Source of the DNA: Paecilomyces variotii
Lineage: Eukaryota
DNA: 53,011 bases
Strand: one strand, 5' to 3'
NCBI GenBank assembly: GCA_004022145.1
Contig: RCNU01000031.1
The number at the start of each line of letters is the position of its first letter. Within the stretch, counting starts at the first letter, position 1. The notes under the pieces are model-generated. The model was not told the origin of the DNA. It saw only the letters and a program-made list of their open reading frames with translations, and searched no databases. The position numbers and the translations under genes were made by a program. Shown here in pieces: positions 2,301 through 30,250 of the stretch.

Positions 2301-2967
2301 ACTAGTATAAGATTATATTATATGCTTAACCTATTTTCTATTTAAACATTTTAAATACTTAGAGCTAAAATAATTAACTTAACTTATTAAGATATTATTA
2401 AAATAGCAAGTTATAAATAGTAAAAAGAATAAGCTCTTTATTATTACTTAAGCCCCTCTTTTATAGTATTAATTTATAGTTTACTAGTCTTTAAGTAAGG
2501 CTTAGTAGATTAATACTACTATCTTTAATTAATTCTGCGATATTTAAATCTAGTATTATAGACTATTCTAAGTATTTAGTTAGTACTTTACTTAATATTT
2601 TAGTTAATACCTCTATTAATACTAAGGTTTATAATAGAATTAGCGCTAAAGTTAGTAATAAAAATATTAGTATTACTAGCGTTAATAGGCATAAAAGAGT
2701 AAACTAAAATAAAGATAATTAACCTAGGCGCTTTATAGAATAAGAGATTAAAGGAGTAATTATTTTTGTATAAAACACTAATAATTTATTATATTAATTT
2801 GCTAAAGAATTATTTCTAAGAATAAGATTTTTAAAATCTTACTCTAGCTTAATTTTTATATTACTGCTATATTATATATAATTCGTAGAAATAGCTTTAC
2901 AGTTATTTATTTAAGTAGTATTTATTAAGAGATAAATATCCTATAGTAAGAGGCAGGTATAATAATA

Positions 2968-3132
2968 TAAGTAATATAAATACGAGGTATATAATATTAC
3001 CTTAGCGCTGCCTGCTACCTTAATAGGGCATAGAGGTTTAAGGTATAGAAGCCTTAAACAATAACTTAACTATATAGTTACTTCCTTATATAGCTAATAA
3101 AAGACAACTTCTTTATCCCTTATACTGTATTA
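2968..3132 (+). repeat. 5' LTR of Gypsy A1
   Basis: Matches the LTRs at 18715, 19608, 22493 and 33545 (core GCTGCCTGCTACCTT...TTCTTTATCCC). Confidence 0.85.
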
Positions 3133-4897
3133 ATTTAGTAGTATATTAAGGTTATTTAGAGCCTAATTATTATTAATAGTATTCTAAAAGCTATTATAGC
3201 GAGCTGCTATACTATTTAATTATTATTATTATCTTAAGTTAGCTTCTAATACTAGTAAATTATCTGCAGTCTATTCCCTATTATATATAAAGTCTTTTAT
3301 TATTATTAAAGCCTTTATATTATTTATTCTCTATATTATTTTCTATTAAAATTTATTTTAATAATATTAAGTCTTACCTTTATTAGTCCTAATTTAATAC
3401 CTTTTATTAAATTATTTATATTAAGCTATTTTCTTATATATCCTATGCTTAGGGATATTATAGGTTAGCTAAGAATATTTATATTTAAAGCCTTACTTTT
3501 TTTATTAAAATCCTATATTATATTATTAGTTTTATTATTTTTATCTTTAGTATTATTATAATTTAGCTTTAGTCTCTCTTATTAAATATCTTATCTAGAG
3601 AAGTTAAAATTAAGCCTTTATAATAAGCTAGCCTTTAAAGGAAATAAATTAGAGCTAATATCTTCCTATATTATTTAGAGAGATATTAAAGCTTATATAT
3701 AGTCTAATAATATTTAAAATAATAATTTCTTAGTTTAGGGATTAGTTTAATTATAGGACTATTAATCTTATTAATTTTATCTTATCTTATTATTTAAGAT
3801 ATAACTCCTTAATATATACTTTATTAACCTATATTAAAGTATTTTAAATTAAGCTATAAATATCTCTTTTTTAAATAAGATAATTTATATTTCTTATATT
3901 ATAGGTTATAAATTAATCTATATTCTATAATACTATTAAAGACTTTCTTAAGTTTATTTTAATATTAATAGAATATCTTACTTTCTAAAAATAGCAGATT
4001 AATATAGTAGATTTAGCTAATTTTATAATAGAACTTATATAACCGCTAGGTAAAATATTTTATATATATTTATAATACCTTTATAACTTTATTATTATAA
4101 GATAAATACTAGCAGAAGTAATCTAAGTTATAAATTCTAATTATTATACCTCCTTATTTAGCCTTATTTAATCTAGTTTTTAGATTTTAGAATTCTATTT
4201 TTTAAAGCTAGAGAGCTAAATATTAAAGAGTCTTATTATTTAATCTATTATATTCTTTCTTAAATCTATTATTATATTATTTAGATAAAACCTTAATATA
4301 GCTAGCAGTAAATAGTAATAATATAATAAATATTATTAACCTAATTATACCTCTAGTACTACTAGCTATAGACTCTAATATTATATTAATAGAAATATTC
4401 TAGCAGATAATAGAATTTAATTAGCAAATAATAGAAAATATAAGAGTTATATTAAACTAAAATTGCTAAATAATAAAATACCTTATAAGTTAAAATAATA
4501 TAGCTTAAAATAATATAACTTAAAATAATAGTTAACCTAGCTATTAATAATAATAATACTAATAATAATAGTAATAAGATTAATAATAGCAACTAGTTTA
4601 AAACTAAACTTTTAGCTATAATTCCTTAATAAACCTAAATATTAGATTCGCCTTAGGGATATTAATAAGCACTATAATTAATAGTATACTATAGAAGTAA
4701 ATAAAGCTAAGATACTTTTACTTTAATCTAAGTAATAAAAATTATATTAAGATAGATCCTATTATAATAGTAAAAAGCTATATTTATTATAAAAACATCT
4801 ATATTTTTATTAATTAAATCTATAATTTAGCTATAATAAAAGGAGAACCTATTACATAAAGCTATATTTAAGTATTATTATATAATTTAGCCCTGTA

Positions 4898-5325
4898 ACG
4901 TAATTCTCTACTGACTTAATTACTCGCCCGACCTAATTAGTGCTATATTACATATAAAATAGCCCCTAGATATTTTAATAACTAATTGTTTAATATATAT
5001 AAGATTTAATTTATAGTGTTTTATAATTATAAATTAATATATACTTAAGACTTTAGTCCTAGAAATTGCTTTTTATTTAGATAATATAAATTACAAGTAT
5101 AATTTCAGTAATTATCTTGTATCTTTAATATCTCTAGAAAACTAGAATTTAAATATCTAAAACTTAGCTTAAATATTTCTAATAATCTATATTTTAGATA
5201 TCTATATTCTAAATGCCCTTAAACTACTTCGTTATTAAGATATTTATATTTGAAATTTAGCTATTTTATATATAATACGACACTAATTAGGTTAGGCGGG
5301 TAATTAGGTTAGTAGAGAATTACGT
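4898..5325. mobile_element. MITE (ACGT-ended family), 428 bp
   Basis: TA|ACGTAATTCTCTAC...GTAGAGAATTACGT|TA. The empty site in the paralogous Gypsy copy near 21520 (CCTTATAATAATATATAGC) confirms a TA duplication. Confidence 0.93.
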
Positions 5326-6623
5326 TAATAGTATATAGTTAAGCTATCTAACTATAACTATAAAATATTATATATATATTTTATTAAAGAAGGTTAAATC
5401 CTATAGCTTATAAAATATTTTAAGATTAATACTACAGCTGCTATAAAATAGCTTAAGTCTTTATATTATATAATATAAGATATTATAGCTAGCTAGACTT
5501 CTTAAAGGTTTATTTAGCAAGTATTATATTTATTATATATTATAAAAATAAGAGAAATATATAGTTAACTATCAGCTGTATAGAACAGGTTTTTCTTATT
5601 TTTTAAGTATAATATATAAATATTATAGGAAAATATTATAGTATCTAAATTTATTAAAATAATTAAAAAAGCCTATATAATATAGTAAGAGTAAGTAAAT
5701 AAGAGTTAATATTATTATTAGCAATATAACTATAGTAATATTTAAACCTTTTTTTATTATTTTTTCTTTTTATTAAATTCCCTAAGGCAGAATTAAGGCA
5801 ATACTAATAATATTAATTAGACTAGAAGTAAAGCCTTATAATAGTTTATACAGACTAGAAATTAAGGCTATAATTATACTAACTATATAAATATAATACC
5901 CTACCGATTAAATTAGTCTAATATATAAATATAATAATATTAAATATAGAATATAGACTAACCTCTAGTATAGCTATATTAGTTCTTATAGTATAGTAAC
6001 TAAAACTAGTATTAAGCTTTAAATAGAAACTATTTATAATAGTACAGAAATAATAATTAAGCTCCTTTTTTTTTAGCATAGCCTTAAGCTATAGCTTATA
6101 TAGATATTAAGATAGAGTAAGCTATAAATATTATAGATAGAAACTATAATTAGTAAAATAGCTATTATAATATACCTAGGTTAAAAGTATATAATATAAT
6201 ACCTCCTAATTAAACCTTAGATCTAATTAACTTTAAAGAATATAATAGTTACTATTATTAAGATAGTTACTAAGATAAATATAATAATTCTTAGTATATA
6301 GACTATAGTAAAGATAATTATAATACCTATATTAACTATACTATACTATAGATTACTTTTATATTTAAATATTAGCTATACTAAGTAATCTTCTAGTTAA
6401 ATAATAAGCTCTATAATTATTTATATAATACTAATTATTATTAAAAATTAACGCTATATTCCCTTATTATTAAAGCCTCTAATATTATATTACTTATTAC
6501 TATATATATAATTATAGCTATACTATAATTTATTATTGCTAAGTCCCTAGTTAAATAAACTCCTCCTAGATATATCTTTTACAGATAGTATTATATTATA
6601 ATAAAAATATATATTATTAATAG

Positions 6624-6946
6624 TATAGTAGGGAGAATTAGTTAGGAGAATATAACTAGCTAAAGCAGTTATATATTATTATTAGAAGAGGTAGTTTAAA
6701 TACTTCTAATAAAGTAGTAAGAGGGAGAGATAGATAAGCAAGAATAGAATAAAAAATTTCCCTCTTTTAACTATTATCTAGTATCAGTTTAGTATAAAAA
6801 AAGAATCAGTTTATTATATTATCTTATTATTAGAGCTTCTTCTCTAGTTCTACTTTAAACTCTGAAAATAAGTGCTTCTCTTCCTCTTCTTTATATCTTT
6901 ATGCTTAAAGACTCTATACTAAGTCTTAATATCTTATCCTACAATA
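6624..6946 (+). repeat. 5' LTR of Gypsy B
   Basis: Direct repeat of 16197-16519; ends TA..TA are RIP-altered TG..CA. Confidence 0.92.
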
Positions 6947-7479
6947 AATTAGAGTTAAATATAGGGGGCATTAAAATATTAAGCAAAAATAAGGGAGAAA
7001 GGGGAATTAGAAGTTAAGGTTAAGGCTAAAGCTAAAAAAAAGGATAAAAAGCGGTAAAAAGATAAGTAAAATAACTAAGGGAGATTACCACTATAAATAA
7101 AAAAAAAATAAATATATCTCTTAAATTAGTAGAGACAATAAATATAATATAGGGTAAAAACACACACTAGCAATAAAAAAAAGGAAGAATTACTAAATAT
7201 AAAGAAAAGCTTAATAGATATAAAAGGAAAGCAAAAATTTAAAAAAAATAAAAAATCACTAAGTAAAAACTATTTATTAAAAAATAGAAGAACTTCTTAT
7301 TATTATCTTTATTACTATTCTTTTAAAAAAATATAGAGAAAAATATTAATCTTTTTAGTATTAGTTAAGGAAGAAGGACTTCTAACTCCTTAATATTATT
7401 AGGTCTAAAGATATAGATAGCTTAAGCATCTAAAAATATAGAACTACTAATAATATAATTAATCTAGGTTATATCGGCT

Positions 7480-8900
7480 CTATAAATACTAATACCTAGA
7501 AATCTTAGGGCACTATATTTTAAAAGGGATAATATTACTTATTATTTAAGGCTTTTTAAAAGGCTATATAAAGCGAATTAACTCCTAGAAGAAGAAAAAA
7601 CTAAATAATTTATAGACTATTATAGCCCGTTAGTATTATTATAGATAAATACTTAACCTAAATATAAGAAAAAAACTACTTAAAACTGGTAAAAGCAATT
7701 AAATAAGAATATATCTACTATAATAAGTATTAAAGGAAATATAATATCTAATAGCTAGAAAGGTTTAAAAATATAAAATATAATAGCTCTAAGGACCTAA
7801 AAAAGTATAATTAAGAATATTAAGCTATATTAGAAGCATTAGTAACTTCAGATAAGTTAAGCTAATATTTATAGGGAGTTTAGTATCTTTAGACTTTTAA
7901 AGGAGCTTAAGCAGCAGATAGTTTAGGAGTTAAATATAGATTATTATATCTTATCTATTATTAAATATACTAATTTCTATAAAGAAATAGTAAATAGAGT
8001 AAGAACTATTAAAATCCTTTGCTATCTTAATAATAATAAACTAAAAAAAGATTAAGATATAGTGGCTTTAATAAAGGAAAAAGTAACTAAAGAAGATAAT
8101 ATATAATTTTTTATTAAACTTAATAGAACTTACTTAGATAAGAATAAGAATAGAACTAAATAATAGAGCATTAAAATAAAATTAATAAAATAATTATAAA
8201 TTAATTAGTTAATAAAAGAGTTTAAGAAATTAAAACTATATAATATATAAGAAGGCCTAATAATAGCATACCTAATACTGGCATAAATATATAAACTAAA
8301 GCGCCTTTAGAATTTAACCTAATTAAAAGATTTAAAATACCTCTAAATTTATATAACTTTTACTAGGCTCCTAATTATATTTAATCTTATTACCTAGATT
8401 TAAAAAGCCTCCTAAATTAGAAGCTTATCTATTAAGGAGAAAATTATAAACTTTACTTTAGGCTAAAAAGATAGAATAGAGAAGTTATTTATCTTATATA
8501 AGGAAATATATTATAAAAGAAGATTATTAAATAGAGACTAAAGAAAGAGTAAAGGAATATTAATTTAATTAGATATAATATCTAATTAATTATACTAAAA
8601 TAGCCTAAGGATAACTTAAGCTCTAAGGAAGAAGCTAAAAATATTATAAAAAATTATTACTTTATTAATATAATAGAATTAGATAAGTCTTAAGAAGTAA
8701 AAAAAAGGTAAAGCGGGATTAAATAACTATATAAAGAAAAACTATAGAAAGTAATTAAATAAGAATAGAGATTTCCCTTAGTTAAGATAAATTAATTTGG
8801 CAATTATTAGTCTCTAAATATAACTAAAAGAATAAGGATAATTAAAGAAGAAATAAAAAATATACCTAAGCAGAGTAAAGATAAAAAGATTATTAAAATA
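7480..8900 (+). pseudogene. gag: gag of Gypsy B (RIP-inactivated)
   Basis: PRNLRALYFKRDNIT near 7495 reverts to PGNPGAPHFEGDNVT. YNFY*APNYI*SYY near 8352-8395 reverts to a CX2CX4HX4C zinc knuckle. Boundaries approximate. Confidence 0.7.
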
Positions 8901-9179
8901 AAAAAGAAATAGAAATTAAAGAGATTTAAAATTATAAATAAGCTAAAAGAGACTATTAATATAATAGGGGTTATAAACTAGATACTAAATACTAGAGTTT
9001 AAATATTAATTTGGGACCTTATTTATCTTATAACTATAGTAAGTAATAACTAAGGCAATATTCTATAATACTAAAAGAGTACAGTTTAATACCTTTATAT
9101 TAAATATAGAATATATAATAAATAGTATAGATTAGTATATTTATATATCTTTATAACTTAAGCCTTTTAATAAAGATAA

Positions 9180-12100
9180 GGTGCTATATATAGCTATAAC
9201 TCTAAAGTTGCCGATTAAAATTAATAGTTATAAGAAAGTATAAAATATTATAATAAATAATAGAGCCGAAATTAATATAATATATAAAGATATAGCAAAT
9301 TACTATAAACTTATTATAAGCTAAAAATTTAAAGATAATATAATATCAGCAGATAGCAGGTAGATCTCTTTTATAAGTCTTTATAAAAAAATACCTATAT
9401 AAGTAAGATCTTTCTATTATAAAGTCCCTTTCTTTATAATAAATAATAAGATTAACTATAATTATATTCTAGGATAGCTTTTTAAGCATTAAGTATATTT
9501 ACAGCATATTATTTTATTAGATAGGATAATAGAGAGCATAATTTATTCTATAGACTAAAAGAATTAAGCTATTATTTAGATATTCTTAATAAATAATCTA
9601 TAAAATAAGTTAAGAGAAAAAGTTTTATAAGACCTTTTGTTAAAAATATAAGAATTATTAAACTAAAGCTAAAAAAAAATAATAAATATTAGACTAAGAA
9701 AAGAGAAGACCTATAGGAAGCATATTTAATAAATAATATTAACTTTAGATTAAACAGAAGAATTAAAAAAAAAGATATAGGAATATTTAAACCTATTAAA
9801 TTATAAAAAAAAAATTTATAGGGGTATAAATTATTTAAAAGATATAATCTTTTTACTATAAGAGTAAATTATGCTATTAATACCTAGTATAAAAAGAAGC
9901 ATAAGAAAATTTATCTAGTAAATATAGTAAATAGACCTATAGCAGCATTAAGAGAATTATTAAAATAAAAAAAGATTATCTAAAAGTATTATTACTTAAA
10001 CCCTTAAAAGAATATAAAAAAAATATAGGGAGAATTTACTAATTATATCTAGCTAAAAATATTAGATATAGTAAAAAGAATAAGACTAATCTTAAAATAC
10101 TTAAAGAATCTTATTATAAGGGAAGTCTTATAGCCTAGAGAAAAAAAAATTATTAATAGAAGTGCTCTTCACTAAAAAAGCTATTCTTATATAAACTTTT
10201 AAAGAGATTAGATAAATATATCCTAAAGTAGTATCTCCAGTTATTATTTAGACTATATAATATAAGCTATAATAAGCAAAGAGCTTTCTAATATTAAAGA
10301 TATTTTATAATATAATATAAATAATAATAAAGAAAAGAATAAAAGTTAGAATCCTTAAATAAAGTTAGGGGCCCTATAGGAACCTATAGTTTCTTATAAA
10401 AAAAAATAGCAAATACTAATTAATTAATACAGTAATAAAAATTAACTAAATAATAATAAGAGATATTAATTTACCCCCCTTAGCTAATAAATTCTCTAAG
10501 GAGTTTAGCAGAATATTAGTATCTATATTAATAGATTTATTCTCTAAATATAATCAGTTAAAATTAGCAGAAGAATTATACAACTTAATAGCTTTTTATA
10601 TACCTAGGATTAATTTAGTTTGCTAAGCTAAACTACTATAAAGATAGATTAATATAGTGCTAGAATTTATATATAAGATTATAAAAGTGCTTATTAATAA
10701 TATCCCTAATATCTATAATATATTTTTAGATAATACTCTAATACAAGGTCCTAAGACTAACTATAGAGAAGAGAAAGTACTGCCTAAAATCAGGAGGTTT
10801 ATATTTAAATATATCTAAAATATTAATAAAATACTATATAATTTTAAACTTGCTGGCCTAACTATTACTAAAAAAAAATTATAATTTATAGTTCTAGGGA
10901 TTAAAGTAGTAAAATATATATATAATATAGAAGGGAGGTATCTAAAATCTATAAAAATAATTAAGATTCTAAAATAATTACTCTATTAAAACTTATAAGA
11001 AGCAAAAAGATTTCTAGGGATTATAGTCTATTATCAGATATAGATTAAAAGATATATTACTAAAGCTAAGCCGATATATTTAATACTAAGGAAAGAGTAA
11101 AACTTCCTTTTAAAGACTAGAATAGCAAGACTTAATAAATATTTTAAAAGTAGCCTTAATAACAGCTCTAGCGCTTAAATTAATTAACTATAAAAAAGAG
11201 GGAATAATTATTGTTAATATAGATACTAATAATAATAAATAGAGGGCATAACTTACTTAAAAAAAAAGAATCTAATAAAAAATACCTAGCTAGATATAAA
11301 AGTAGAGTATAGACCTAAATAAAAAAGCAATATAATAAAGGAAAGTTAGAATATAGGGTAATATTAAAGGCTCTCTATAAATTTTAAGTATACCTATATA
11401 ATATATACTTTCAGCTAGAAATAAATATAAAAACTTTAATTATATAATTAAATAAGATAGCTATAGACCTTCTAAGATTAATAATTGCTTACTAAATTGT
11501 TTAGATCTAGTTATTTAACTTTAATATTATCTATATAGTAGGAAGAAAGAACTTAGTTATAAATAAATTATCTTAAAAACTAATAATAAAGTAAGACCTA
11601 AAGGAAGCTAAAGATAATAATATAGAGGAATTCTTAAACCTATAATTTTATACAGTCTATTATATTAGCGTATAAGAAGTAGAATTAGATAATATCCTCT
11701 AATTAATACCTACACTATATTAATTAGAAAAATCTTTACTAATTATAGAATAGCTATAAACTATAATAAAACCAGATAATATAGACTGGGGATAATATAC
11801 TAAATTTAAAAAGGAGGCCGTAAAGTATATAATATAAAATAATATTCTTTTCTAGAGAATATAGCAGAATTAGCCTTATTAAATAATTATTAATAATAAA
11901 AAAAAGTAAAAAAAGATCTTTACTACCCTTTATAAAAAATATAGATATTAGAAATATAAAGCAATATATAGAAAAATAGCTAATTAATATTAGTAGAAAG
12001 GCCTGTATAAGTATATTATTAGATAGGTGAAGATATATAATAAATATTAGAAAGCTAATAAAGAATATATAGAAGAAGCTTTATAGTTAATATTTATTTT

Positions 12101-13100
12101 ATTAAAAAAATTAAAGCTATATCTAAATATCTGCAAGATTATACCGCTTAGTAAGAGAAAAATTTATATTACTATATTTTAAGACAACTTTAGCTAAGTT
12201 AAATATAAAGCCTTTAATAGCCCTACTTTAAGAGCTATTACTAAATTTTTATAAAAAGATTAGATTTATTGCTAAAAAATAATAAAGACTTTTATTAATA
12301 ATAAAGGACTAGAGAATAAAGCCGCAGTTAATATATTAATATAAAAGTATAAGATTAACTATATTAAAGTCTTACTATATAACCCGCAAGCAAATAGAGC
12401 GGTTAAAATTATATATAAATCCTTTATATATAGCATTAGAAAACTTATAAAAAGAATAAGGGTAAATTAAGTAAACTATCTATTAGTAGTAATCTAGGCA
12501 GATAAAAATATAGTTAAGACCTCTACTAATTTAATATTATTTAGAGTAATTATAGGATATAATATAATATTGCCAATTAAATTAGAAATATCTATTTAAA
12601 AAATATTAGTATAAGATAAAGTTAAAACTATAGAAGACCTTCTACTTCTTTATATAAAGCAGATAGAGCTTAAAGATTAGGATATAGAAGAAATATAGCT
12701 TTATATCTAATATATAAAAAAAGCTAATAAGGAAGCCTTTAATAATAGAAAGCAACTTTATAAGAAATAGCTGATTAAAGGATAACTTATTTTACTCTAT
12801 AATATAAAGCTTAAGATATCTTACTTTGCCAAACCAGTATATTACTAGTTTAAACTATATTAAATTAAGGAAGTCCTTTAGAAAGGTTCTTATAAGCTTA
12901 AAGAGTTAAATAATATAGCTTTTTAAGATCTAATCTATAGAAATTACTTAAAAGGCTATTATTTATAAGATAATTAAAAAGATATACTAACAGTAAATAA
13001 TAATATAAAACTTAAGTAAAAAAATTAGCAAATAAATAATAGTAAAGATAATATAAACTAGATATTACTTAGATTAATATATATAGTTATAATTCTAGCA
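9180..13100 (+). pseudogene. pol: pol of Gypsy B (PR, RT, RNase H, integrase; RIP-inactivated)
   Basis: Protease LINNRAEIN (~9250). RT GPYRN (~10370), LPPLANKFSKEF, DLFSKYNQ (from DLFSGYDQ, ~10535) and IFLDN (from FLDD, ~10720). RH end GRKNLVINKLS (from GRKNSVADGLS, ~11540). Integrase YNPQANRAVK (from YNPQANGAVE, ~12378). Confidence 0.9.
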
Positions 13101-13549
13101 TTCTTCTTTTAAAAATATTAGCTTAAAAGAGGGAAAAATAGAAGGCTAGCAATAAAGCAAGCTTAATATTAGATAAGGGTTTAGCTTAAGATAAAAAAAA
13201 ACAGATAAATAAAAGATAAGGATATCTAAATTTTTTTAGAAGAGAAGGGACTTAAAAATAGATAAAATAAAAGAGTATATACAATATTATTAGAAAAATA
13301 AGGCTAGACTCTTCTAATTACTAAAAAAGAAAGATATTAAATAAAGAATATAAAACAATAATAAAAAAATCTCACTTTATATTAAAAACCTTATTTCTTT
13401 ACTTATAAATATTATTTAAAAACTTAAGTCTAATTATTTATTCTATACCCTCTTTCTATATTAAATATTGCTAAACAAAAACTACTACATATTCCTACTA
13501 AACTAAAATAAAAAAAAAATACTCTTTAAATTTAAAATATTATTCTATA

Positions 13550-16150
13550 GAAACAATTACTAAAGTTTAATATAAGTATTTATATAATTATAAGCAAGAT
13601 CTATAATCTTATAAAGAAGGCAATTACTATAATAAAAGATAGACTAGAAAAGATTAAATTTATAGTAGAAATAGCAGTTATTATTATAAAGTTTTAAATT
13701 AAATAAGATAAGGCTATAATAGATTATTATAAGTTTTTATTATAATAAAAGCTTCTAAAAAAAATATAAATAAAAGAAGAAAAAGTAATTAGAGAACTAA
13801 AAAAATTAGTAAAAAGAGTAAGAGAAAATAGGAACTATATAAATAAAGAGTATTTGTTAATAGTAATAGTATAGAGAAAGTAAATAGTTAGCTAATTAAT
13901 AATATTAGCCAGGAAATCCTATTAAACCTTAATAATATTAAAAAAGATTATAAAATAAACTAAAGAATAGAGAGCAATAGCTATTTACTTAATATAAGCT
14001 TAAGTAAACAGATTATTAAATATTGAAAAGCTTAGTATATAACTAAATAAAAGCCTACTATTAATAGATATAAAAAGGACAAAAAATTTATTAAAAAGAA
14101 TAATAAACAGGAGTAAATAGTTTCTATTTAAAATAATAAAAGCAAAGCTTTAATTAATTAACATATAGATTGGGGAAGACTTCTTTTTAAAGGAGATTCT
14201 AGAATATAAAGTAGAAAAAACAATTAAAGACCTAAGAGAGAGTTTATTAATTAATCTTACTATTAGTAATAAGGAAAGTAATAAGATAAAAGAAAAAAAA
14301 AGGATAAAAAGAGAATAAAGAGCCCTAAGAAGCCTAAAGGTAAGAAAAAGATTAAAATATAAGAAAAAGGGAAATAGGCTAAGGAAAGTTATAGATATAG
14401 GACTAAAATAATAAAATTATTTAAAAGAGCTCTCCTTAATTAGGAAGATAAAGAAGTTATAAATAGCTTTTAATAAAGAGGAACTAAAATTAATAAATTC
14501 TATTATAAATATATTAATAAGATTTAAGTAATATTAAGCATATATATATAATAAAAGAAAAATTATTAGAGAAAAGATTAAAAATACTTATTAAAAATAA
14601 TAAAAATCTCTATAACTTAGTAATATATAATAAATATTAGAGGTAGTTAGTTCTAATATAGCTATTGTCTAGATTTATTTTTTAAGAACTATAATTATAG
14701 TAATAAAAAAATCATTAGAATAAAATTAAATTAGCGGCCAATAAATGTTAGAAAAAGATATAGAGGAGATATTATATTAATTAATATTAAAGAGGCTTTA
14801 GAAGATCTGTAACCTCTATATATGCCTTTTAATAGGTATAATAGGAGTAAAAAAAGAGATACCGGTCAGAAATACTCGAGAGATATTAAAGGCAATAAAT
14901 AAGATAATACTAATAATAGTAAGAAAATAGCTAAAGACTCTATTTAAAAGCATATATTACTTATTAAGTATATATTATTAGAAGAGTAGCCGCATTACTC
15001 TTCTAATAATACTAAATCTAGATAAATACCTCTAGTAATTCAGTTTAAAGAACTAGAAGACAAAAAAAATTCTAGCTATACCTTACCTAATTTTATAAAA
15101 ACTAAAGAAGCCGCTAATAATATAAAAATAAAGGAGCCCTCTATTAATATAAACCCTTAAAATAATAATAAATAAGTTAAAAAGCCTTTTAGTAAGATTA
15201 ATAGTAGTATAATTAAAGAAGCCACAGAATTTCTTATAGGGGGAAAAGAATATCTAATCTTTTACCTAAAGCTTACTATAGACTTCTATCTAAGACCTAA
15301 ATATTTTATTTAGTTATATCTATAAAAAAGATATATAGCGCTTAGATTAGCCTTTAATAAAAACCTTATATAATAGGAGCTTATAGGATAATTCTATTCT
15401 TCTATATTTTAAAATAAAGAAGGATTTAATTTATAATATCCTGCGCAGGAAATAAAGATTATACTATATTATAAGAAAAAAATAAATAATAAGGCTATAG
15501 AGGTAAAGAATATATCCTAAAATATTTTATAGAAGATTATTAGATAAGATATAATATATTACCTTATTTAGCTGGCTTTTTTTAGAGAAAAAAAATTATT
15601 ATTTATAAGTTTATTATAAAAGAGAGTATATAGAAGAAAATAAAAAAAATAAAATTATAATCCTAAGAGATATATAAAAATAAAGCCTTATATCTCTGCA
15701 TAATAAAGCTATTATAGGAAAGCCTTTTAAAGGGAGTAATATTACTTTAAAATATAAATAGATATTAATATCTAATAACCAGAGAATAATAATATTAAAG
15801 GGGAGAAGCTCTAATATAGTCGCCATTTATTCCTTTAATTATAAAGAAGTTAGCGAGATATATAAAGACCAGGGAGAAAAAGGCCTGTTTAATCTTTTTA
15901 TCTATAGGGTAACTGCTATTAGGAAGGCTCTTTTTAGGCAGGCTTTATAGGACTCCGCAGAGATATAGGTAAAGTTATATTTTATTCTTACTTAAGATAA
16001 ATAATCTATTAAACTTTTCTTGCAGGATTAATAATAATAGCTTATAAACCTAATAATCACTAGATATAAAATATATAAAATATTAGAACATTCTTATTTT
16101 AAGAGGAACTTATAGTATAAATAGAAGGGGATTAAATAAATTATAGTATT
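13550..16150 (+). pseudogene. Additional ORF of unknown function inside Gypsy B, between integrase and PPT
   Basis: The plus strand is purine-rich, with a K/E-rich tract at ~14270-14400 and a stop-poor frame over ~14760-15310, e.g. KEATEFLIGGKEYLIFYLKLTIDFYLRPKYFI at 15215-15310. Start, end and frame continuity are uncertain. Confidence 0.6.
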
Positions 16151-16196
16151 AAAGAGAAGCAGATAAGGACATCTATATATAAAGGAGGAGAAACTA

Positions 16197-16519
16197 TATA
16201 ATAGGGAGAATTAGTTAGGAGAATATAATTAGCTAAAACAGTCATATATTATTATTAGAAGAGGTAGTTTAAATATTTCTAATAAGGCAGTAAGAGGGAG
16301 AGACAGATAAATAAAAATAAAATAAGAAATTTCCCCCTTTTAACTATTATCTAGCATTAATTTAATATAAAAAAATAATTAATTTATTATATTATCTTGT
16401 TATTAGAGCTTCTCCTTTAGTTTTACTTTAAACTCCAAAGATAAGCGCTTCCCTCCCTCTTCTCTATATTCTCATACTTAAAGACTCTATACTGAGTCTT
16501 AATACCTTATCCTACAATA
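16197..16519 (+). repeat. 3' LTR of Gypsy B
   Basis: Direct repeat of 6624-6946, preceded by the PPT. Confidence 0.92.
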
Positions 16520-16941
16520 ATAGTATTAAGGGAAAGCTAATTTATTTAGATTTAAATTATTCTATAATAATAATTAATAAATTATTTCTTAAGTAAGTTA
16601 TACTGCAAGTAAAAATCTATTATATACCTAAAATAAATATTAATAGGATAAGACCTATAATATATCTTATTAGCCTATATTTAGCTTATCTTAAATTATT
16701 TAGCTATTTATTATTCTGAGCTAATAATGCTTTAGCTTAAAATTAAAGCCTATTTAGTTAATTATTTTAAAGCAAATCTTTTATTTAAAGTTAATATAAT
16801 AAGTTACTATAATATATTAATATACCTTATTACTTTAATCTATACTGCTATTAAAAATATCTATATTCTACTAAAGATTATTATAAAGCTAAATTATAGT
16901 TTACTATAACTAGTTTATTTAATATATAGAATAATAGTGCT

Positions 16942-17604
16942 ATAATATAGTTTAGCCTATAGATATTTATAATTACCCTACTCTTGCAAATTATTTTATT
17001 ATTATATTAAAGAATAAATATAGAATATTTGCTTAGTATATATATAGTAGTATATTTTATTCTTCTTTATTAATACAGCTTATTAAAGGTTTAATTAATA
17101 ACTTTATAATCTTTAGGGCTAAGAGAGTAAATCTTAGTATAATCTAATTATAATATTATTAGCATAATTAATATAATTATTCTCTAATAAAGCTAAGAGA
17201 CTAGTTATTTAGGGTAATAATCTAAGCATTAAAAGAAAACTTAATATTAGTATTATTATTTATAGGCCCCTAGATATTGCTAATAAGCTTAAGAAGGTAA
17301 TTAAAGCTTATAATATTTTGTTAAACTATATATTTACTAATATTCCTCTAGATTAATAAATAATAATCCTATTAAAGGAAGGTTAAGAATTAAATATTCT
17401 TAAGTATACTAAGATTTACTCTCTTAGCCCTAAAGATTATAAAGTTATTAATTAAACCTTTAATAAGCTGTATTAATAAAGAAGAATAAAATATACTACT
17501 ATATATATACTGAGCGAATATTCTATATTTATTATTTAATATAATAATAAAATAGTTTATAAGAGTAAGGTAATTATAAATATCTATAGGCTAAACTATA
17601 TTAT
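16942..17604. repeat. Inverted duplication, ~200-bp arms (16942-17141 / 17405-17604) with ~263-bp spacer
   Basis: The arms are near-perfect reverse complements (e.g. AATCTTTAGGGCTAAGAGAGTAAATCTTAGTAT vs ATACTAAGATTTACTCTCTTAGCCCTAAAGATT). The left arm is absent from the paralog at ~47030-47255. Confidence 0.9.
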
Positions 17605-17806
17605 TAAACTTAATGCTTATCCCCTTTTATTATTATAAGAGGATATTATTATATTTATAATAGGAAAATATATTATTTTAGTATTTAATGCAGTATCCTT
17701 CTAATATTAATAGCATATCTAATATAACTATAGGAACCGCTTATTTATTATATTATATAGAGAATAGGAGATCTTTAATATTATTATTATAGGCTTTTAT
17801 AATATA

Positions 17807-18243
17807 ATATAATTCTCTACTAACTAGATTACCCGCCTAAGCGGATCAGTAGCATATAATATACAGAATAATGTCTTTTAAAACTAAGATTTCTTAACAA
17901 CTATAAGTCTAGTGCATATAATACTTAATATATTGCTTTTTATAATAGTAAACTTTTATATACTAAGATTTTAGGCTCTAAAAATCGCTTATTATTCAAG
18001 TAATATAAATTACTATTATAATTTTTATAATTATATTCTACCTAAGATATTTAGAGAATAGCAAGACTTAAGCAGATAAAATTAGACATATATAATCTTA
18101 ATAATATATATTCTATATATATCTGTTCTAATAACCTTTAAATACTTAGTTATTGAGATATTTTAGTTTAAAAAAGGGCTATTTTATATATAATACGGCA
18201 CTAATCTGCTTGGGCGGGTAATTTAATTAGTAGAGAATTATGT
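17807..18243. mobile_element. MITE (ACGT-ended family), 437 bp, inside RT of Gypsy A1
   Basis: TA|ATATAATTCTCTAC...GTAGAGAATTATGT|TA (RIP-altered ACGT ends). Empty site near 47930. Collinear over its full length with 49655-50090. Confidence 0.92.
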
Positions 18244-18714
18244 TATTAGCATATATTTAGTAATAAATAAATTACTACCTATATGCCTTTTATAAATTTA
18301 TAAGAATATATATTAATAATGCTATAATTGCCTTTAATATAGTTAATAATTATTATATATACCTATATAAGGTCTTTAAGAAAATATAAGAACTTAATAT
18401 TAGGCTTAATCTTAAGAAGTCTTTTATAGGATTTTTTTATACAGCTATTAGATTACTATATTAATTTATTAAGAATAAATATTATTAATAAAAAGGTAAA
18501 GGCTATAATTAATATTTTATTTCCTTTTATAGCCTAGGCCTTAGAGTTATATCTTAACTCAATAAGATAGTTTAAGCAATATATCTCTTAATATATTAAG
18601 ATTATATAGCTATTATAAGATTAAAAAATAATATTCTTTAATAAAGCCTTTATAAAAGATAAGATATAGTAGACGTTTTATAAAGAATATAATTTTAGCT
18701 ATATTTTTATAAGC

Positions 18715-19607
18715 TAAGTAATATAGATATAGAGCATATAATACTACCTTGGCGCTGCCTGCCAGCCGCCTGCTACCTTAATAAAGCATAGAGATGCGAG
18801 ATGCAGAAGCCTTAGGCAATAACTTAGCTATATAATTACTTCCTTATATAGCTAATAGAAGGATAACTTCTTTATCCCCTATATTATATTAATTTAGTAG
18901 TATATTAAGGTTATTTAGGGCCTAATTATTATTAGAAGTATCCTAAAAATTATTATAGTAATCTGCTATATTATTTAATTATTATTATCTTAAGCTAGCT
19001 CTTAACGCTAGCAGGTTATCTATAGTCTCTTTTCTATTATATATTAAGTTATCTGTTATTATTAGAAGTCTTTATATTACTTATTTTATATATTTCCTTT
19101 TATTAAAATTTATCTTAATATTATTAAGTTCTGCTTCTGTTAGTCTTAATTTAATATCTTTTATTAAATTATTTATATTAAGCTATCTCCTTATATATTC
19201 TATATCTAGGGATACTATAGCTTAGCTAGGAATATTTATATTTAAAGCCCTACTTTTATTATTAGAATCCTATATTATATTATTAGTTTTATTATTTTTA
19301 TTATTAGTTTTATTATTTTTATCTCTAGTATTATTATAATTTAGCTTTAATCTCCCTTATTAGGTATTTTATCTAAAAAAGCTAAGATTAAGCCTTTATA
19401 ATAAGCTAGCCTTTAGAGGAGATAAATTAGAGTTAATATCTCTTTATATTATCTAGAGAGATATTAGAGCTTATATATAGTCTAATAACTTTTTAAATAA
19501 TAACTTTTTAATTTAAGGATTAGCTTAACTATAAGACTATTAATCTTATTAATTTTATCTTATCCTATTACCTAGGATATAATTTCTTAAAGTATATTTT
19601 ATTAGCC
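18715..19607 (+). mobile_element. Gypsy family A, copy A2 (5' LTR 18715-18891 plus 0.7 kb of interior)
   Basis: LTR homologous to 2968-3132 with an extra GCCAGCCGCC-type duplication. The interior matches 3133-3830 and is cut by the next LTR. Confidence 0.87.
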
Positions 19608-21934
19608 TATTAACATAGACACAGGGCATATAATGCTACCTTAGTGCTGCCTGCTACCTTAGTGAGGCACAGAGGTTTAAGGTATAGAAGCCTTAAGCAA
19701 TAACTTAGCTATATAGTTACTTCTTTATATAGCTAATAAAAGATAACTTCTTTATCCCCTATATTATATTAATTTGGTAGTATATCTAGATTATCTAAAG
19801 CCTAATTATTATTAAGAGTATTCTAAAAACTATTATAGTAATCTGCTGTACTATTTTTATTATCTTAAGCTAGCTCTTAATACTAGCGGGTTATCTATAG
19901 TCTCTTTCCCTATTATATATTTAGTTATCTTCTATTATTAGAAGTCTTTATATTACTTATTTTATATATCCCCTTTTATTAAGATTTATCTTAATATTAT
20001 TAAGTTCTGCCTTTATTAGTCCTAATTTAATATCTTTTATTAAATTATCTATATTAAGCTATCTTCTTATATATCTTACGCCTAGGGATACTATAAGTTA
20101 GCTATAAATATTTATATCTAAAGCCCTACTTTTTTATTAGAATCCTGTATTATATTATTAGTTTTATTATTTTTATCTCTAGTATTATTATAATTTAGCT
20201 TTAATCTTCCCTATTAGATATTTTGCTTAAAAAAGCTAAGGTTAAGCCTTTATAATAAGCTAGCCTTTAGAGGAGATAGATTAGAGCTAATATCTCCCTA
20301 TATTATTTAAAGAGATATTAGAGCTTATATATAGTCTAGCAGTATTTTAAATAGTAATTTCCTAATTTAAGGATTAGTTTAACTATAAAATTATTAATCT
20401 TATTAATTTTATCTTATTCTATTACCTAGGATATAACTTCTTAAAGTATATTTTATTAGTCTATATTAAAATATTTTAGATTAAGCTATAGATATCTCCT
20501 CCTTAAATAAGATAATTTATATTTTTTATATTATAGGCAATAGATTAATTTTAACACTCTATAATATTATTAAAGACTTTCTTAAATTTGCCTTAATATT
20601 AATAAAATATTTTACTTTTTAGAAATAGCAGACTAATATAATAGACCTAGCTAATTTTATAACAGACTTTATATAACTGCTAGATAGACTATATTCTATA
20701 TATTTTTATAATATCTCTATAGCTCTATTATAAGATAAATACTAATAAAAGTAATTTATGTTATAAATTCTAGTTATTTTATCTCCTTACTTAGCCTTAT
20801 TTAATTTAGTCCTTAGATTTTAGAATTCTATTTTCTAAAGCTAAAAAGCTAGATATTAAAAGATCTTATTATTTAACCTACTATATTCTTTCTTAAATCT
20901 ACTACTATATTATTTAGGTAAAGCCTTAATATAGCTAATAGTAAATATTAATAATATAATAAATATTATTAACCTAGCTATACCTTTAATATTACTAGCT
21001 ATTAACTCTAATATTATATTAATAGAGATATTTTAGCAGATAATAGAATCTAATTAGCAGATAATAGAAAATATAAAGGCTATATTAGACTAAAATTACT
21101 AAATAATAGAATATCTTATAAGTTGGAATAATATAGCTTAAAATAATAGCTAATCTAGCTATTAATAATAGTAATACTAACAGTAATAGTATTAATAATA
21201 ATAAGATTAATAATAGTAATTAGTTTAAAACTAAACTCTTAGCTATAATCTTTTAGTAAACCTAAATACTAGATTTATCCTAGGGATATTAATAAGCGCT
21301 ATAATTAATAATATGCTATAGAAGTAAATAAAGCTAAGATATTTTTATCTTAACTTAAATAATAAGGATTATATTAGGATAGGTCCTATTATAATAGTAG
21401 GAAGCTATACTTATTATAGAGATATCTATATTTTTATTAATTAGATCTATAATTTAGCTATAATAAAAGGAGAACCTGTTATATAAAGCTATATCTAAAT
21501 ATTATTATATGACTTAGCCTTATAATAATATATAGCTAAGCTGTTTAACTATAATTATAAGATATTATATATCTATTCTATTAAGATAGGTTAGATTTTA
21601 TAGCTAATAAAATATTTTAAGATTAATACTATAGCTATTATAAAATAGCTTAAGTCCTTATATTATATTATATATGATATTATAGCTGGCTAGACTTTTT
21701 AAGGGTTTATTTAGTAAATATTATATTTATTACATGCTATAAGAATAAGGGAAATATATAATTAACTGTTAGCCGTATAGAATAAGTTTTCTCTATTTTT
21801 TAAGTATAATATATAAGCGCTATAGGAGAATATTATAATATCCGAATTTATTAAAATAGTTAAAAAAGCCTATAGTATAATAAGAGTAAATAAATAAGAA
21901 TTAATATTATTATTAGTAATATAACTATAATAAT
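19608..21934 (+). mobile_element. Gypsy family A, copy A3 (5' LTR 19608-19771 plus gag portion, 3'-truncated)
   Basis: LTR followed by ATTTGGTAGTA, consistent with a RIP-altered TGGTAGCG initiator-Met tRNA PBS as in Ty1/Ty3. The interior matches 3133-5740 minus the MITE; homology ends near 21934. Confidence 0.87.
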
Positions 21935-22492
21935 ACAAGAACTTAGGCTATATTACGCGTGTCTCGTCCTTAAATCTGATTATTTAAGCTATTATAGTAG
22001 TTACATTCAGATTGCTAATATATATAGATTATAAGGCATAAGTTATTAAAAGACAGCTTTAATAGTTAATTAGAATTAACTAAATAATTATTACTGCCTA
22101 TAGTCGCATTATTATAGATATTATAAAAATAATAGAAAAGAGCTATTTATAATACCTTTTTTATATTATACCCCTAGATAAGACAGCTTTTATACTAGGC
22201 TATATATAATAATCTTAGCTATAGACAGCGGCCTTATTCTTTACTGTATATCTTCTAATTATTAATAATATTATTACTATATTATTATTATATTATTATT
22301 ACTATTATCTTTATCTATCTTAAAATTAGACCTATTCTGATATAGATATAGGTTCCTCCTTAGATCTTTTAGGCTTCTTAGGCTTTAGTATAGATATAGA
22401 TTAGGCCTTTAATTTATCTTTAGCTTAAATAAACTTTAAATAAGATATTAACTTAAAATAAAATAATATCTTAGACTTATCTTTAGGATTAT

Positions 22493-23000: not shown

Positions 23001-25584
23001 ATAATAACTAATATTAATATTATCTATATTAATATATAATAGCAGAATATTATTGGAGGGTATAAGATATTTAAAGGGATTATTTAATATTATAATATTT
23101 CTAATAAGCTAGGATATCTAGCTAATATATAAGATATCTAATCCTGCGCTTAACTATAAGTAGTTTTATATACTATATTAATAACTTCTTGCTGAGGATA
23201 GCTATATTAGGGATATTATATTTATAATATAACCTTAGCAAGACCTTATTATTAAGGATAAAATAGATTAGCCGGTAATTCTTATTATATATATGTTTAG
23301 CATCTATAATAGCTAAATAAAGTGCTTTATATATATTAAGTTATAAGGTAAAGTCTTAGATTTCCTTATTATAGAGATTTGTAGTATTACCTAGTCTAAT
23401 ATTATATATTAAATTATATAGGGATTTTATTATAATAAATAATAGGCTAGAATTTAATATTAGTTATATTAATAGCAGAACCTTAGGTTAAGCTATAATA
23501 TCTTTTAGAATAGCTAGGTAGTATTACAAGATAATCTCAGCTATCTAATTAGTTTATTTTAATTATCTATTAGTCTGCGGGTAATATACTATTAAATAGA
23601 GCAATTTAGTATCAAGATACTTAAATAGGCCTTTTTATAAATCTAATAGAAACTTTAAATTATAATCTAATAGGATTATTAATAGGATACTCTAATTACT
23701 AATCTGGAGTTATTTAAGTAATGCTAATGCCTAGTCTTTAGCTGTCTATATATCTTATCCTAGTATAAATATAACTTACTTCATAAATTTGTAAGTAATA
23801 GTTAAGATTTAGTTATATAGCCCTATATCTAGCAATCCTATAATAAAGTCTATAATAATTATATAAAAAGGGATATTTAATATAAGAATAGGCTAATAGC
23901 TGCTGTAAGGTATATAATAATATATTTAATTTATTTGGTATAAATAGCAATGCTTAATATATATTTTAACTTGCTTTATAAATCTATAAATTATAAAGTT
24001 ATAAATATTAGTAATTATTTAGTGATACCTAGAGTATCCTATGCTATTATAAGCTATTTTAAGAATATTCTTAAGGACTAATTATAGTACACAGAGATAT
24101 TATATATTATTAGTATTAATTATATAAAGGAGTTTATTGCGAATTATAAAAAAAAGATATATAAAGTTTATATTATCTTATAGTATAGTGAGGATTTTAG
24201 ATTAATAAAGATTAGTTTTATAGCTATCTTTTAATTAGGTCTTAAACTTCTTTAATAACTTAATAAAAGTTATATTATATTATAGCTCGTCCTTAGTATT
24301 ATTAATATATATAGTCCTGAGAAATATAGTAGCTAAATAATATTTAATATCTTCTAATATAGGGGTATTTAGCTTAATAGAGAGTAATTTAAGATATAAC
24401 AGCATATCTATAATAATATTATTATATCCTGGCTTATATGTAAATATAAGGTTAAATCTCTATATATATTGCAATACTAAGATAAGGTATAGGTTAGTCT
24501 AATTTGTAGATATTAATTAGAGAGATATTTATTTAGCAATTGTAATTATAATGCTATAATCTATAAAAATAATCGGCGGCTTCTAACAGGTTTTAATAAT
24601 ATAATATATCTTATATAGTGCCTATACTAAATACGCTATCTCTATTTCTATTAGCCAATATAGATATTGTAAGCTCTAACTACCTTTTTAAGCTTATTAG
24701 CGATATCTAAGGGCCTATAAATGGTAATACCAATATTAAGTTTCCTCTTAAAGCTTAGATTATTGCCTTATATAGCTAGTCCCTTAGCTTTATTAGAGGA
24801 TAATAGTGCTAACTATGCTAGCGGTGCTATAATTAGGTTAATATAGAATATATTAATCTCTTTATACTTATTAACTAGACCTAAGTGTATTTTTTATAGA
24901 ATAGTCTATTCCTTATTTATAGTATTAATTGCCTAAATAAAGATAAAGTTAGTATTTATTAAATAGGCATATAGATTTATTCCTTAATAGTTAGGCTTAA
25001 AGAGATAATTATAATCTTCTGCGAGATATTTTTTAAAGTATATTAAAATATATATAGAACTGTTTAGTAGTACTACTATTTTATATATAGAATAGATTAA
25101 TTATAATAAATTATAATTTAATTTTATAGTAATTATTAGTAGGATATAGATATTCTTAACAGTAGTATAGGCTAAAGTAGTAAGATATATTAATATACTA
25201 TAGCAACTTATTATATTAATTTTAAGCAGAAAGTTTACTTTAAAATAATTAACTAAGTAGGCTTTAATTTTAAGTTAAAGTATTATTAGCTCAAAATAAT
25301 AGATAGCTGGATAATCTAATATAAGTTAGATATAGGCTAATAAGTTATATATTATAGGTTTTATTCTATTAATCTTTATTTTAGATATATAATAGATTTT
25401 TGCTTGTAGTATAACTTATTTAAAGAATATCTTATTAATTATTATTATAGAGCAATCTGAATTTAAGCAGATTAGCTTTGCCTTAATACTGCCAGTAATA
25501 TATACTTTTATTATAGTATAATACTATCTATAAAAGATATATCCTAAAGGAGCTTACTTAACTAGGGATTTAGTAATAATAAGT

Positions 25585-25723
25585 TCTTGGAGCTGACGAA
25601 GATGCTTAATTAAGGAAGCTATCTAGGGGGAAGCTGAACTGATCTATCTGGCCACTACTCTGATGACTAAGCTAACTGCTGGCGCGGGCGACTACTACTG
25701 GAGCCCCTAGGGGCACTGAAACA
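25585..25723 (-). repeat. 3' LTR of Copia
   Basis: Direct repeat of 30427-30565; also homologous to 49550-50131. Confidence 0.92.
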
Positions 25724-25783
25724 CCCCCTTTGACTGCGCTAGCAGACAGCCTGATTGCCTAATCAGGTAATTTATTTAACCCT

Positions 25784-28700: not shown

Positions 28701-30250
28701 TAATATGCTTTATAATAAAAGTCTATATCCTTAGTAAGTTAGATAGCCATAGGGTTTAATTTAGTAATAGCTTTAAGCTTTATAATACTAGTATATCCTA
28801 TTCTCCTATATAGGAGTTCTAATAATATTATTAGTATAGCAATCTATCTGTAGAGCTTAAGCTATAGAATATCTTTATTTTTATATATATATTTAATAAT
28901 CTAATTAATATCTATATCTACTAGTCTATTATTTTGAGAGTTATACTATATTTTATATAGTATTTTGTTTTAGATTATAGAGAATAGATAGTATTTCTAC
29001 TTTAGCGTATATAGGGCGTAAATAAGAATATTATTTATATAACTGCTGTTAAGCTTAAGGTCTAGTCTAATAATATTTTTGCCTTTACTTTTGCCTAGAA
29101 TATTATTAGTATAGTTATATTTATATTATTATTTTTCTTTAGGGGTAAAGTCCCTATATTTAATAAACTAGGACTTATTATTGTATATATTTTTATATGC
29201 TCTTAAATCTACTATCCAGCTAGTTAATAGGACAGGTGTTACTAAAACTATTATCCTTATAAAGCTATTAAAATCTTTTTTTTCTTTATTTTATTTTTAT
29301 AGATTAGAGTTGACTTTTTTTTAATTTAGCAGAGTCTAGATACTCCTTAATAGGTATTATTAATTAGAGACTTTTTTTTAAGGTAATAGCAATCTGCAGA
29401 GTTATATTTAAATATATAGCAATATCTATATTTATCTTTAAAAAATAGCTTCTTCTCACATATCTTATAAGTAAAGTTTAAAGGGTCTTTACCTAAAGAT
29501 AGATTTTTTAATAATTTATTTAACTGCCTGATCTCCTAAATAAGAGTCTTATTTATAGATATAATAAGGACTGCTTAAGTGCTCTTATAAGATCTAGCTT
29601 AATTAATGGCTTTAAAGCTAAGTTATTAGAATTCCTCTATTATTATATCTATTAAGAGTTTATTCTGCTAAGCCTACTTAATATAATAAGAGTTAATCTA
29701 AGCTAATATTTTAGATTTAAGCTATTTAAGCATTAATATTACTGCACTAAAAGGTAAGAGAATTAAGCCTATATTATTTAATTTTATTATGCGATCTCTA
29801 AATTTAGTAATATATTGTTTAATTATTCTATATTAAGATCTGGTTATAATAACAGCTTATTAAAATATAAAGAATCTGCCTAAAGTTAAGCTGTAGTTAA
29901 TAATCTTTTTAATTGCTTTAATATATTTATTTATATAGATTAGTTTATTCAGCATAATTCTAATAGTTTTAATTAGCTTATAGTCTATCTAACCGCTAAT
30001 CTAGCTCTTTACTATTAAGCTAAGCTTCTTCTATATCTTATAGACTTTAGCTCTGTCTTAAAATATAAGTCTCCTAATAAATATATTAATCAGGTCTTTA
30101 TAATCTATAATTTTAAGGACTTCTTTAACTAGCCAGAGCTAGTTATTAAAATTACTGTTATTAATTAAATATTTGGCTATTATAAGTATTTTATCCTATA
30201 TAATCTTTAGCAGCTTTAATCCTTAATAAATTATAATTGCTAGAGCTGTT
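25784..30250 (-). pseudogene. Copia gag-pol polyprotein (RIP-inactivated)
   Basis: Zinc knuckle YRYCYIFKYNSADC (~29390-29430). Protease WIVDLRA (from WIVDSGA, ~29200). Integrase RINSRREF (from RIDGGREF) and TPEGNSTLE (~28330-28440). RT ALYKL*ES (from ALYGLRES, ~26880) and IYINNIL (from YVDD, ~26750). RNase H MNPADSLTKPL (~25845-25878). Confidence 0.92.

Follow-up and report, generated by a model that had tools for sequence, protein, structure and literature searches.

The window analysed here is the whole 53,011-nucleotide (nt) stretch of contig RCNU01000031.1 of Paecilomyces variotii (assembly GCA_004022145.1), with a GC content of about 20% throughout. Positions 6624-16518 form one element, a 9.9-kb long terminal repeat (LTR) retrotransposon, probably of the Ty3/Gypsy type, and between its pol gene and its polypurine tract lies a third open reading frame (ORF3), which is very probably a real third gene of the element. 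The element has been heavily damaged by repeat-induced point mutation (RIP). RIP-affected repeats are recognised by a TA/AT index well above 0.89, a (CA+TG)/(AC+GT) index well below 1.03 and differences between copies that are transitions; the two indices are 1.35 and 0.34 for the window and 1.36 and 0.36 for the element alone, and transitions account for 2611 of the 2838 variant places (92%) between copies in sequencing run X1. Only a single open frame of at least 90 amino acids (aa) is found in the window, and it lies on the wrong strand. A first-pass annotation, made from the letters alone, had proposed that an ORF several hundred codons long lies on the sense strand, after pol and before the polypurine tract, and this proposal is borne out by a coding signal and by an intact protein, P0009, that aligns collinearly over 13512-16127. 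The features of the element are as follows.

6619-6623, no strand: target-site duplication AATAG, 5' copy; identical pentamer at 16519-16523.
6624-6945, + strand: 5' LTR, 322 bp, 88% identical to 16197-16518.
6946-9449, + strand: leader and gag-like region, about 2.5 kb, frames 1/0/1; + strand favoured by a RIP-aware codon model, boundaries inferred.
9450-10100, + strand: presumed protease region, frame 0; coding-like signal, position inferred from domain order.
10200-10950, + strand: reverse transcriptase, frame 1; coding signal (0/500 shuffles reach the score) and motifs read by eye.
11250-11411, + strand: RNase H, frame 0; Pfam RT_RNaseH_2, E 3.7e-4, 20.9 bits against a cut-off of 29.8 bits (sub-threshold).
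12141-12980, + strand: integrase core and C-terminal module, frame 0, end of pol; matches in the PDB, C-terminal motifs read by eye.
12990-13507, + strand: non-coding spacer of about 520 nt from pol to ORF3; no three-base periodicity, null shuffle test, no homologue aligning.
13508-16139, + strand: ORF3, third gene, about 877 codons, killed by RIP; codon model and collinear alignment of P0009.
13512-14264, + strand: N-terminal helical domain of ORF3; unbroken block of 251 codons in frame 0, model of P0009.
14268-14400, + strand: Lys-rich, nuclear-localisation-like tract; aligns to P0009 aa 253-300.
14721-14963, + strand: second helical module with conserved Cys-x2-His; match to P0005, internal repeat in P0009.
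14964-15322, + strand: variable linker, not alignable; counterpart of P0009 aa 484-666.
15323-16127, + strand: C-terminal domain with DQGG-G-FD / GVTAIGKA motif; match to P0002, invariant columns.
16181-16196, + strand: polypurine tract; purine run adjoining the 3' LTR.
16197-16518, + strand: 3' LTR, 322 bp, paired with 6624-6945.
16519-16523, no strand: target-site duplication AATAG, 3' copy; identical pentamer at 6619-6623.

Since RIP makes transitions only, it leaves the purine/pyrimidine sequence unchanged, and a constant three-base purine phase of about 0.68/0.52/0.68 runs from 13425 to about 15225, while no such phase is seen in 12750-13400. Similarly, GC skew (+0.10 to +0.32) and AT skew (+0.14 to +0.25) are positive over 13-16 kb as they are in gag and pol, in agreement with the sense-strand purine bias noticed earlier. 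The RIP-aware codon model assumes a mutation probability of 0.6 for every ancestral C or G. It gives coherent frames for pol, with reverse transcriptase in frame 1 and RNase H-integrase in frame 0; it scores 13500-14300 on a par with pol, and this same interval holds the top-scoring 600-nt windows of a scan of the entire window. Significance was assessed by counting how many of 500 dinucleotide-preserving shuffles of each segment reach the observed score. None do so for 13450-14350, nor for the two positive controls, the reverse transcriptase and RNase H-integrase (11250-12950) segments, and only 3/500 do so for 14650-15150 and again for 15550-15950. A coding signal is lacking in the spacer at 12990-13440 (434/500), in 14350-14650 (315/500), in the tail at 15950-16196 (328/500) and in the 3' LTR (78/500).

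A phmmer search with the frame-0 translation of 12990-16196, with X at stops, against 1.84 billion representative proteins gave eight matches at E <= 0.001, of which three were at E <= 1e-10. The best is P0001 (E 3e-24), P0002 (XP_028486980.1) reaches E 2e-14 with 62% identity, and the others are P0003, P0004, P0005, P0006, P0007 and P0008 (KAJ9227068.1); five of the eight clusters carry names, all of them "hypothetical protein [Paecilomyces variotii]", and the remaining three come from Logan assemblies only. P0009, a member of the P0001 cluster with two NCBI accessions (KAJ9246654.1 and KAJ9396751.1), is an intact protein of 941 aa encoded on a 231-kb contig. In tblastn, P0009 aa 2-292 align to 13512-14387 (E 1.6e-28), aa 406-479 to 14730-14951 and aa 809-936 to 15738-16121; P0002 aa 175-246 align to 15780-16028 (59% identity, E 1.4e-20), and P0005 aa 1-68 to 14745-14948 (44% identity, E 1.5e-16). 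A RIP-aware protein-to-DNA alignment, in which each codon is scored by its best RIP-compatible ancestor and an offset keeps random scores negative, extends these matches: P0009 aa 2-483 correspond to 13512-14963 with a score of 391 (raw identity 135/481) and aa 667-938 to 15323-16127 with a score of 174 (79/265), the maximum among eight shuffled controls being 32; identity after best-case de-RIP comes to 67%, which by construction is the most it can be. The tract rich in Lys and Glu pointed out beforehand is found at 14274-14400, where it matches a Lys-rich stretch of the un-mutated homologue, and the stop-poor frame noted at 15215-15310 (coordinate mod 3 = 2) is the one that the RIP-aware alignment also uses over 15323-15599. 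RIP-ruined coding DNA can thus be recovered without a genome, by combining transition-invariant statistics with exhaustive protein search.

Both ends of ORF3 can be placed from P0009. Its residue 2 aligns at 13512, just at the onset of the coding signal, and a TAA at 16137-16139, three codons past the end of the alignment, coincides with the P0009 stop, 41 nt before the polypurine tract; ATA at 13508-13510 may, by eye, be a mutated ATG, although it is one base out of frame. The extra gene had been thought to start at 13100, directly after pol, but its start is at about 13508 and 12990-13507 is a non-coding spacer; the end of pol itself, given as near 13100, was right to within about 120 nt, the C-terminal module of the integrase, read by eye in frame 0, ending at about 12980. 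The integrase and the first ORF3 block share a frame (coordinate mod 3 = 0), as they would if ORF3 were a C-terminal extension of Pol within one gag-pol-X polyprotein and no separate gene; however, 520 nt without a coding signal lie between them, the Met of P0009 stands exactly where homology and coding signal begin, and no longer, fused protein is among the matches listed, which is weak evidence. This makes an extension of Pol exceedingly improbable.

The window copy is dead: by a hand count, RIP has turned about 60 of its codons into in-frame stops, and it also appears to have frameshifts. One further frameshift is needed at 15599 besides those discussed below, and other copies carry indels at 14540 and 14644. 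The un-mutated relatives do carry a long ORF, the absence of which had been named beforehand as grounds for giving up the proposal. A search for relatives of P0009 gave, among the matches listed, no near one, no longer one and, as shorter ones, only P0001 and P0014. A metagenome scan with P0009 found none, and the same scan with the family alignment found one contig, L001, so that relatives are present in environmental DNA; this 1.5-kb contig encodes at 1068-1511 a P0007-like ORF3 C-terminal domain with 52% identity to P0009 aa 744-893, and its upstream part is degraded, with no matching long open frame. No relative was found in the viral contigs searched, and nucleotide and purine/pyrimidine self-comparison found no second ORF3 copy within the window.

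The element that holds ORF3 is bounded on both sides. Its direct LTRs are flanked by a target-site duplication, and a polypurine tract stands upstream of the 3' LTR, as in LTR retrotransposons generally; the first-pass annotation had located this tract and the start of the 3' LTR at 16181-16197, and they are found at 16181-16196 and from 16197, respectively. Contigs from public sequencing runs of the same organism (X1, X6 and X11; about 31-37 Mb of contigs) were compared with the window, and among the joints listed one contig in X1, three in X6 and one in X11 join 6620 to 16521, skipping exactly 9900 bp; additional empty-site joints run from 6623 to 16524 and from 6616 to 16527, and the letters at the joint are ambiguous over 6 positions for 6620 to 16521 or over 3 for 6623 to 16524. 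These empty-site contigs represent paralogues of the flanking repeat that lack the insertion, and because they skip precisely 9900 bp, the whole 9.9 kb, including the 3 kb in question, entered as one insertion.

Whether ORF3 belongs to this element at large, or only to the window copy, was examined from other copies. At least seven contig pieces from X1, X6 and X11 are other DNA copies of ORF3, differing by about 14-18% (about 82-86% identical), so that the segment is present elsewhere in the genome and not confined to the window, as the earlier proposal demanded. In X1, ORF3 and the LTR bins have similar summed depths (1100-3600 and 800-2650, respectively), where summed contig depth does not give copy number and contigs were matched at an 80% identity threshold. 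In addition, P0008, which is a gene model of P. variotii and has several NCBI accessions, matches the end of the 5' LTR and 20 nt of the leader (6816-6965, score 111) and continues straight into ORF3 at 13719-13865 with 53% identity; judged from its sequence, P0008 seems to come from an un-mutated element with an internal deletion.

A later nested insertion, or a local rearrangement of a few copies that is not ancestral, would explain why depth falls about 5-10-fold right after pol, in the bin 13106-13479, and why one contig in each of the three runs departs from the window at 13412. However, no direct or inverted repeats and no target duplication were found at the termini of the ORF3 segment, in purine/pyrimidine space included, and the segment has none of the termini of its own that a separate insertion had been expected to show; it lies on the same strand and at the expected position, its depth is similar to that of the LTRs, and P0008 shows, in another genome, ORF3 joined to an LTR of the same family. 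There are 38 differences between the two LTRs over 322 positions, and all but one (37) are transitions, so the element was young when RIP struck, and it was already 9.9 kb long. A nested insertion is accordingly very unlikely.

The other explanation to be weighed is that ORF3 is a captured host gene, or part of one, that was transduced and does not serve the element, with P0009 and P0002 as the cellular originals or paralogues. In favour of this, RefSeq lists P0002 as a gene model on a contig of 4.5 Mb, P0009 lies on one of 231 kb, and contig depth is much higher for the gag-pol core than for ORF3. Relatives, however, were found only in P. variotii, in Logan assemblies and in one metagenome contig (the exhaustive search used a mutated query, and its reach is therefore limited to close relatives); they form several diverged lineages with 31-60% identity, as transposon genes do; fragments are fused to an LTR in P0008 and to a reverse transcriptase in P0006; and ORF3 sits precisely between pol and the polypurine tract in the sense orientation and has a start and a stop of its own. 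Capture of a host gene is thus unlikely, and each of these rival explanations is in conflict with at least two independent observations.

Several observations nevertheless weigh against ORF3 as a gene of the element. No in-frame start codon survives in the window copy, and about 8 frameshifts are needed over 14296-14720, some of which are perhaps alignment artefacts. The gag-pol core has a summed depth of 7000-22000 in X1, about 5-10 times that of ORF3 or the LTRs, so most related copies may lack ORF3 or carry a version of it below 80% identity. A clean joint from pol to polypurine tract may exist in other copies, the joints listed being only some of them. Among the sequences examined, no un-mutated element that combines gag-pol, ORF3 and two LTRs was observed; moreover, the annotation treats P0002 and P0009 like any other gene and places them on contigs as large as 4.5 Mb and 231 kb, respectively, which fits a host gene too. 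Even so, the explanation that best covers the observations, and that we regard as likely, is a sense-strand third gene of a 9.9-kb Ty3/Gypsy-type lineage with a putative nuclear accessory product. As an observation on the depth itself, the excess covers 6748-13105 as against 13106-16471, with a dip over the reverse transcriptase at 9740-11235; this suggests a much more abundant relative that shares gag-pol and has another 3' part and other LTRs, possibly Tn123 of the same species.

Upstream of ORF3, the domain order reverse transcriptase, RNase H, integrase fits Ty3/Gypsy, every domain scoring below its curated threshold because of RIP. Pfam was run on stop-read-through translations, both whole and as 60 overlapping pieces, and returned the sub-threshold RNase H only, with 13100-16196 empty. 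The reverse transcriptase motifs, a mutated YxDD box included, were recognised by eye after translation of 10200-10950 in frame 1, a region with no Pfam match and only chance-level matches in the PDB; the eye-read motifs of reverse transcriptase and integrase rest on comparison with consensus motifs, not on a tool. A PDB search with 11700-12989 gave retroviral integrases as its top two matches, at E 1.1 and 2, over 12141-12486, and since a real integrase scores just E ~1, negative family searches on this DNA say little. Similarly, no chromodomain was matched by Pfam after the integrase, in scans that also miss the reverse transcriptase and the integrase core. The PDB search of the protease region gave no relevant match, and the leader and gag-like region at 6946-9449 has no family match by Pfam on the read-through translations; this region is unusually long for a Gypsy gag, and its coding-like signal alternates between frames.

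The layout of the ORF3 protein can be read from P0009. In the AlphaFold2 model, aa 21-140 have predicted local distance difference test (pLDDT) values of 68-97 as means over 10-residue blocks, and a long helix spans residues 45-151; a canonical coiled coil was considered for it and rejected, as the heptad register is inconsistent and 229/1000 shuffles reach the observed value, and the helix is accordingly not called a coiled coil. The Lys-rich tract follows, with 32% Lys plus Arg over aa 251-300. P0009 contains two related helical modules of about 50 aa that share the conserved Cys-x2-His, its internal repeat score being 49 against 26.5 +/- 4.7 for shuffles (maximum 45); the second of them has pLDDT values of 66-88, and about aa 420-470 are, besides aa 21-140, the only part modelled with confidence. 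The linker at aa 484-666 is acidic and of low complexity, with 38% Ser, Thr, Pro and Gly and a net charge of -21, is modelled without structure, and is shorter in the window copy than in P0009. The C-terminal domain, putatively alpha/beta, has an invariant DQGG...GVTAIGKA motif and 17 invariant columns in five sequences, namely four un-mutated relatives and the mutated window copy, and the ORF3 paralogues share these columns at only 31-60% identity. The highest Kyte-Doolittle mean over 19 aa in P0009 is 1.27, with none above 1.6, and its first 30 aa average -0.71 and are hydrophilic, so that by this simple heuristic there is no membrane segment and no signal peptide; an envelope-like role, one of the options offered by the first-pass annotation, is therefore rejected. 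From its sequence, the ORF3 product is best described as a predicted soluble, multi-domain orphan protein of about 880-940 aa.

As to function, several steps may be proposed. By analogy with other three-gene retroelements, translation of ORF3 could depend on a subgenomic or a spliced RNA, or on a transcript that starts within the spacer; the Lys-rich tract would take the protein into the nucleus; and the protein might serve the element in trans as an accessory factor. It could, for instance, help to import the pre-integration complex into the nucleus or to target it, or could counteract silencing by the host. On the features given above, the ORF3 product would most likely be a soluble, probably nuclear accessory protein, and the mechanism as a whole is put forward tentatively, as one candidate that is open to considerable doubt. 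A more specific version, in which a nuclear counter-defence or targeting factor, arisen de novo in a Eurotiales Gypsy lineage and with a fold new to the databases, would shield new copies from RIP or heterochromatin silencing or steer integration, is improbable. The comparisons with known proteins and the test for a coiled coil weigh against assigning any function. Pfam found no family in the ORF3 parts of P0009 and P0001-P0008, where it also found no extra RNase H of the Tat/aRNH type; a PDB sequence search with P0009 gave nothing below E 0.18, and PDB phmmer searches with the ORF3 frames gave chance-level matches only. AlphaFold2 reached a mean pLDDT of 47.3 for P0009 and of 38.4 for the C-terminal core of P0007, which is unusable; the ESM Atlas model of P0002 is poor (pLDDT 0.31), with no usable matches. 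Foldseek against the PDB gave 0 matches at E <= 0.001, and VIA-align found generic long helices only, the best having a Z of 7.5 and a root-mean-square deviation of 3.8 over 112 aligned residues.

Extra genes of LTR retrotransposons show gains of abilities such as an envelope, an extra RNase H or demethylase domains. To our knowledge, few extra genes have been documented in fungi, and none with a known role. The Athila elements of plants and the insect errantiviruses have an env-like third ORF with a signal peptide and transmembrane segments. ORF3 is like these in being a third, sense-oriented ORF that is placed between pol and the 3' LTR and presumably relies on a subgenomic RNA for its expression, and unlike them in that P0009 has, by the heuristic above, neither signal peptide nor transmembrane segment and does not resemble an env protein; such env-like third ORFs are mentioned in the accessible parts of PMC2864245 and 10.1101/2023.08.03.551782. 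Boty/BcGypsy1 of Botrytis cinerea has been reported as a Ty3/Gypsy element with an extra antisense gene, brtn (Zhao et al. 2011, as cited in PMC8365987), and is thus likewise a fungal Ty3/Gypsy element with a gene besides gag-pol; compared by description, with the antisense orientation of brtn taken from the cited title, it differs from ORF3, which is sense, downstream of pol and about 900 aa long, all ORF3 alignments and the entire coding signal being on the + strand. Some fungal Gypsy elements have also been depicted as carrying an "add. ORF" whose function is not known (Novikova et al. 2010, Fig. 3 legend, PMC2864245); they are a precedent, for which the accessible source text gives no position, size or sequence, and the corresponding part of PMC3248453 speaks only of complex nested elements that have additional domains. 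The view that fungal Gypsy elements have gag-pol only, held at first, was therefore too strong, as the extra ORFs in PMC2864245 and brtn in PMC8365987 indicate. Elements with an extra ORF are a kind known already; both the ORF3 family and its location within an element of the Eurotiales seem to be new, and the literature searched contained no description of this gene.

For P. variotii, the literature found, as far as the accessible text goes, describes only Tn123, a "Tf2-type" element of 7,091 bp from CBS 144490, with RIP-mutated copies that constitute AT-rich regions (Urquhart et al. 2018, PMC6300479). Going by that text, Tn123 is like the window element in its host species, which is also that of the best protein matches, in being an LTR retrotransposon and in its RIP-mutated, AT-rich copies; by our own arithmetic, the window element minus the spacer and ORF3 comes to about 7.1 kb, near the 7,091 bp of Tn123. 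It is unlike the window element in that 7.1 kb is too short for the 2.6-kb ORF3 plus this gag-pol, and a third gene of Tn123 is not described there; a kinship between the two, compared by description only, may be supposed. It has also been reported that P. variotii is tractable, with transformation, crossing and experimentally shown RIP (PMC6300479, in the part accessible). ORF3 is thus a large orphan gene with intact copies in a tractable host, and the "hypothetical proteins" P0009 and P0002 can be relabelled as probable transposon genes; intact copies, tractable host and relabelled proteins together make the function of this extra gene directly testable.

The surroundings of the element are themselves repetitive. 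Long direct repeats, 74-88% identical, lie on either side of it at 2972-5625 and 18754-21822 (also 19611-20429); the element was inserted within another repeated sequence, of which insertion-free versions exist elsewhere in the genome. At 18264-18504 on the + strand, 1.7 kb past the 3' LTR, there is a reverse transcriptase fragment of a different retroelement. It is this fragment, and not the reverse transcriptase of the 9.9-kb element, that the C-terminal half of P0006 matches (score 135), while the N-terminal half of P0006 matches ORF3 at 13680-13934; this P. variotii gene model is a chimera of ORF3 followed by the flank-type reverse transcriptase, and the window shows the same order. A second block with a RIP-aware coding signal, at 24900-29700 on the - strand, is presumably another dead retroelement. 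Finally, at 46000-53011 the GC content falls to 11-16%, far below the remainder of the AT-rich window.

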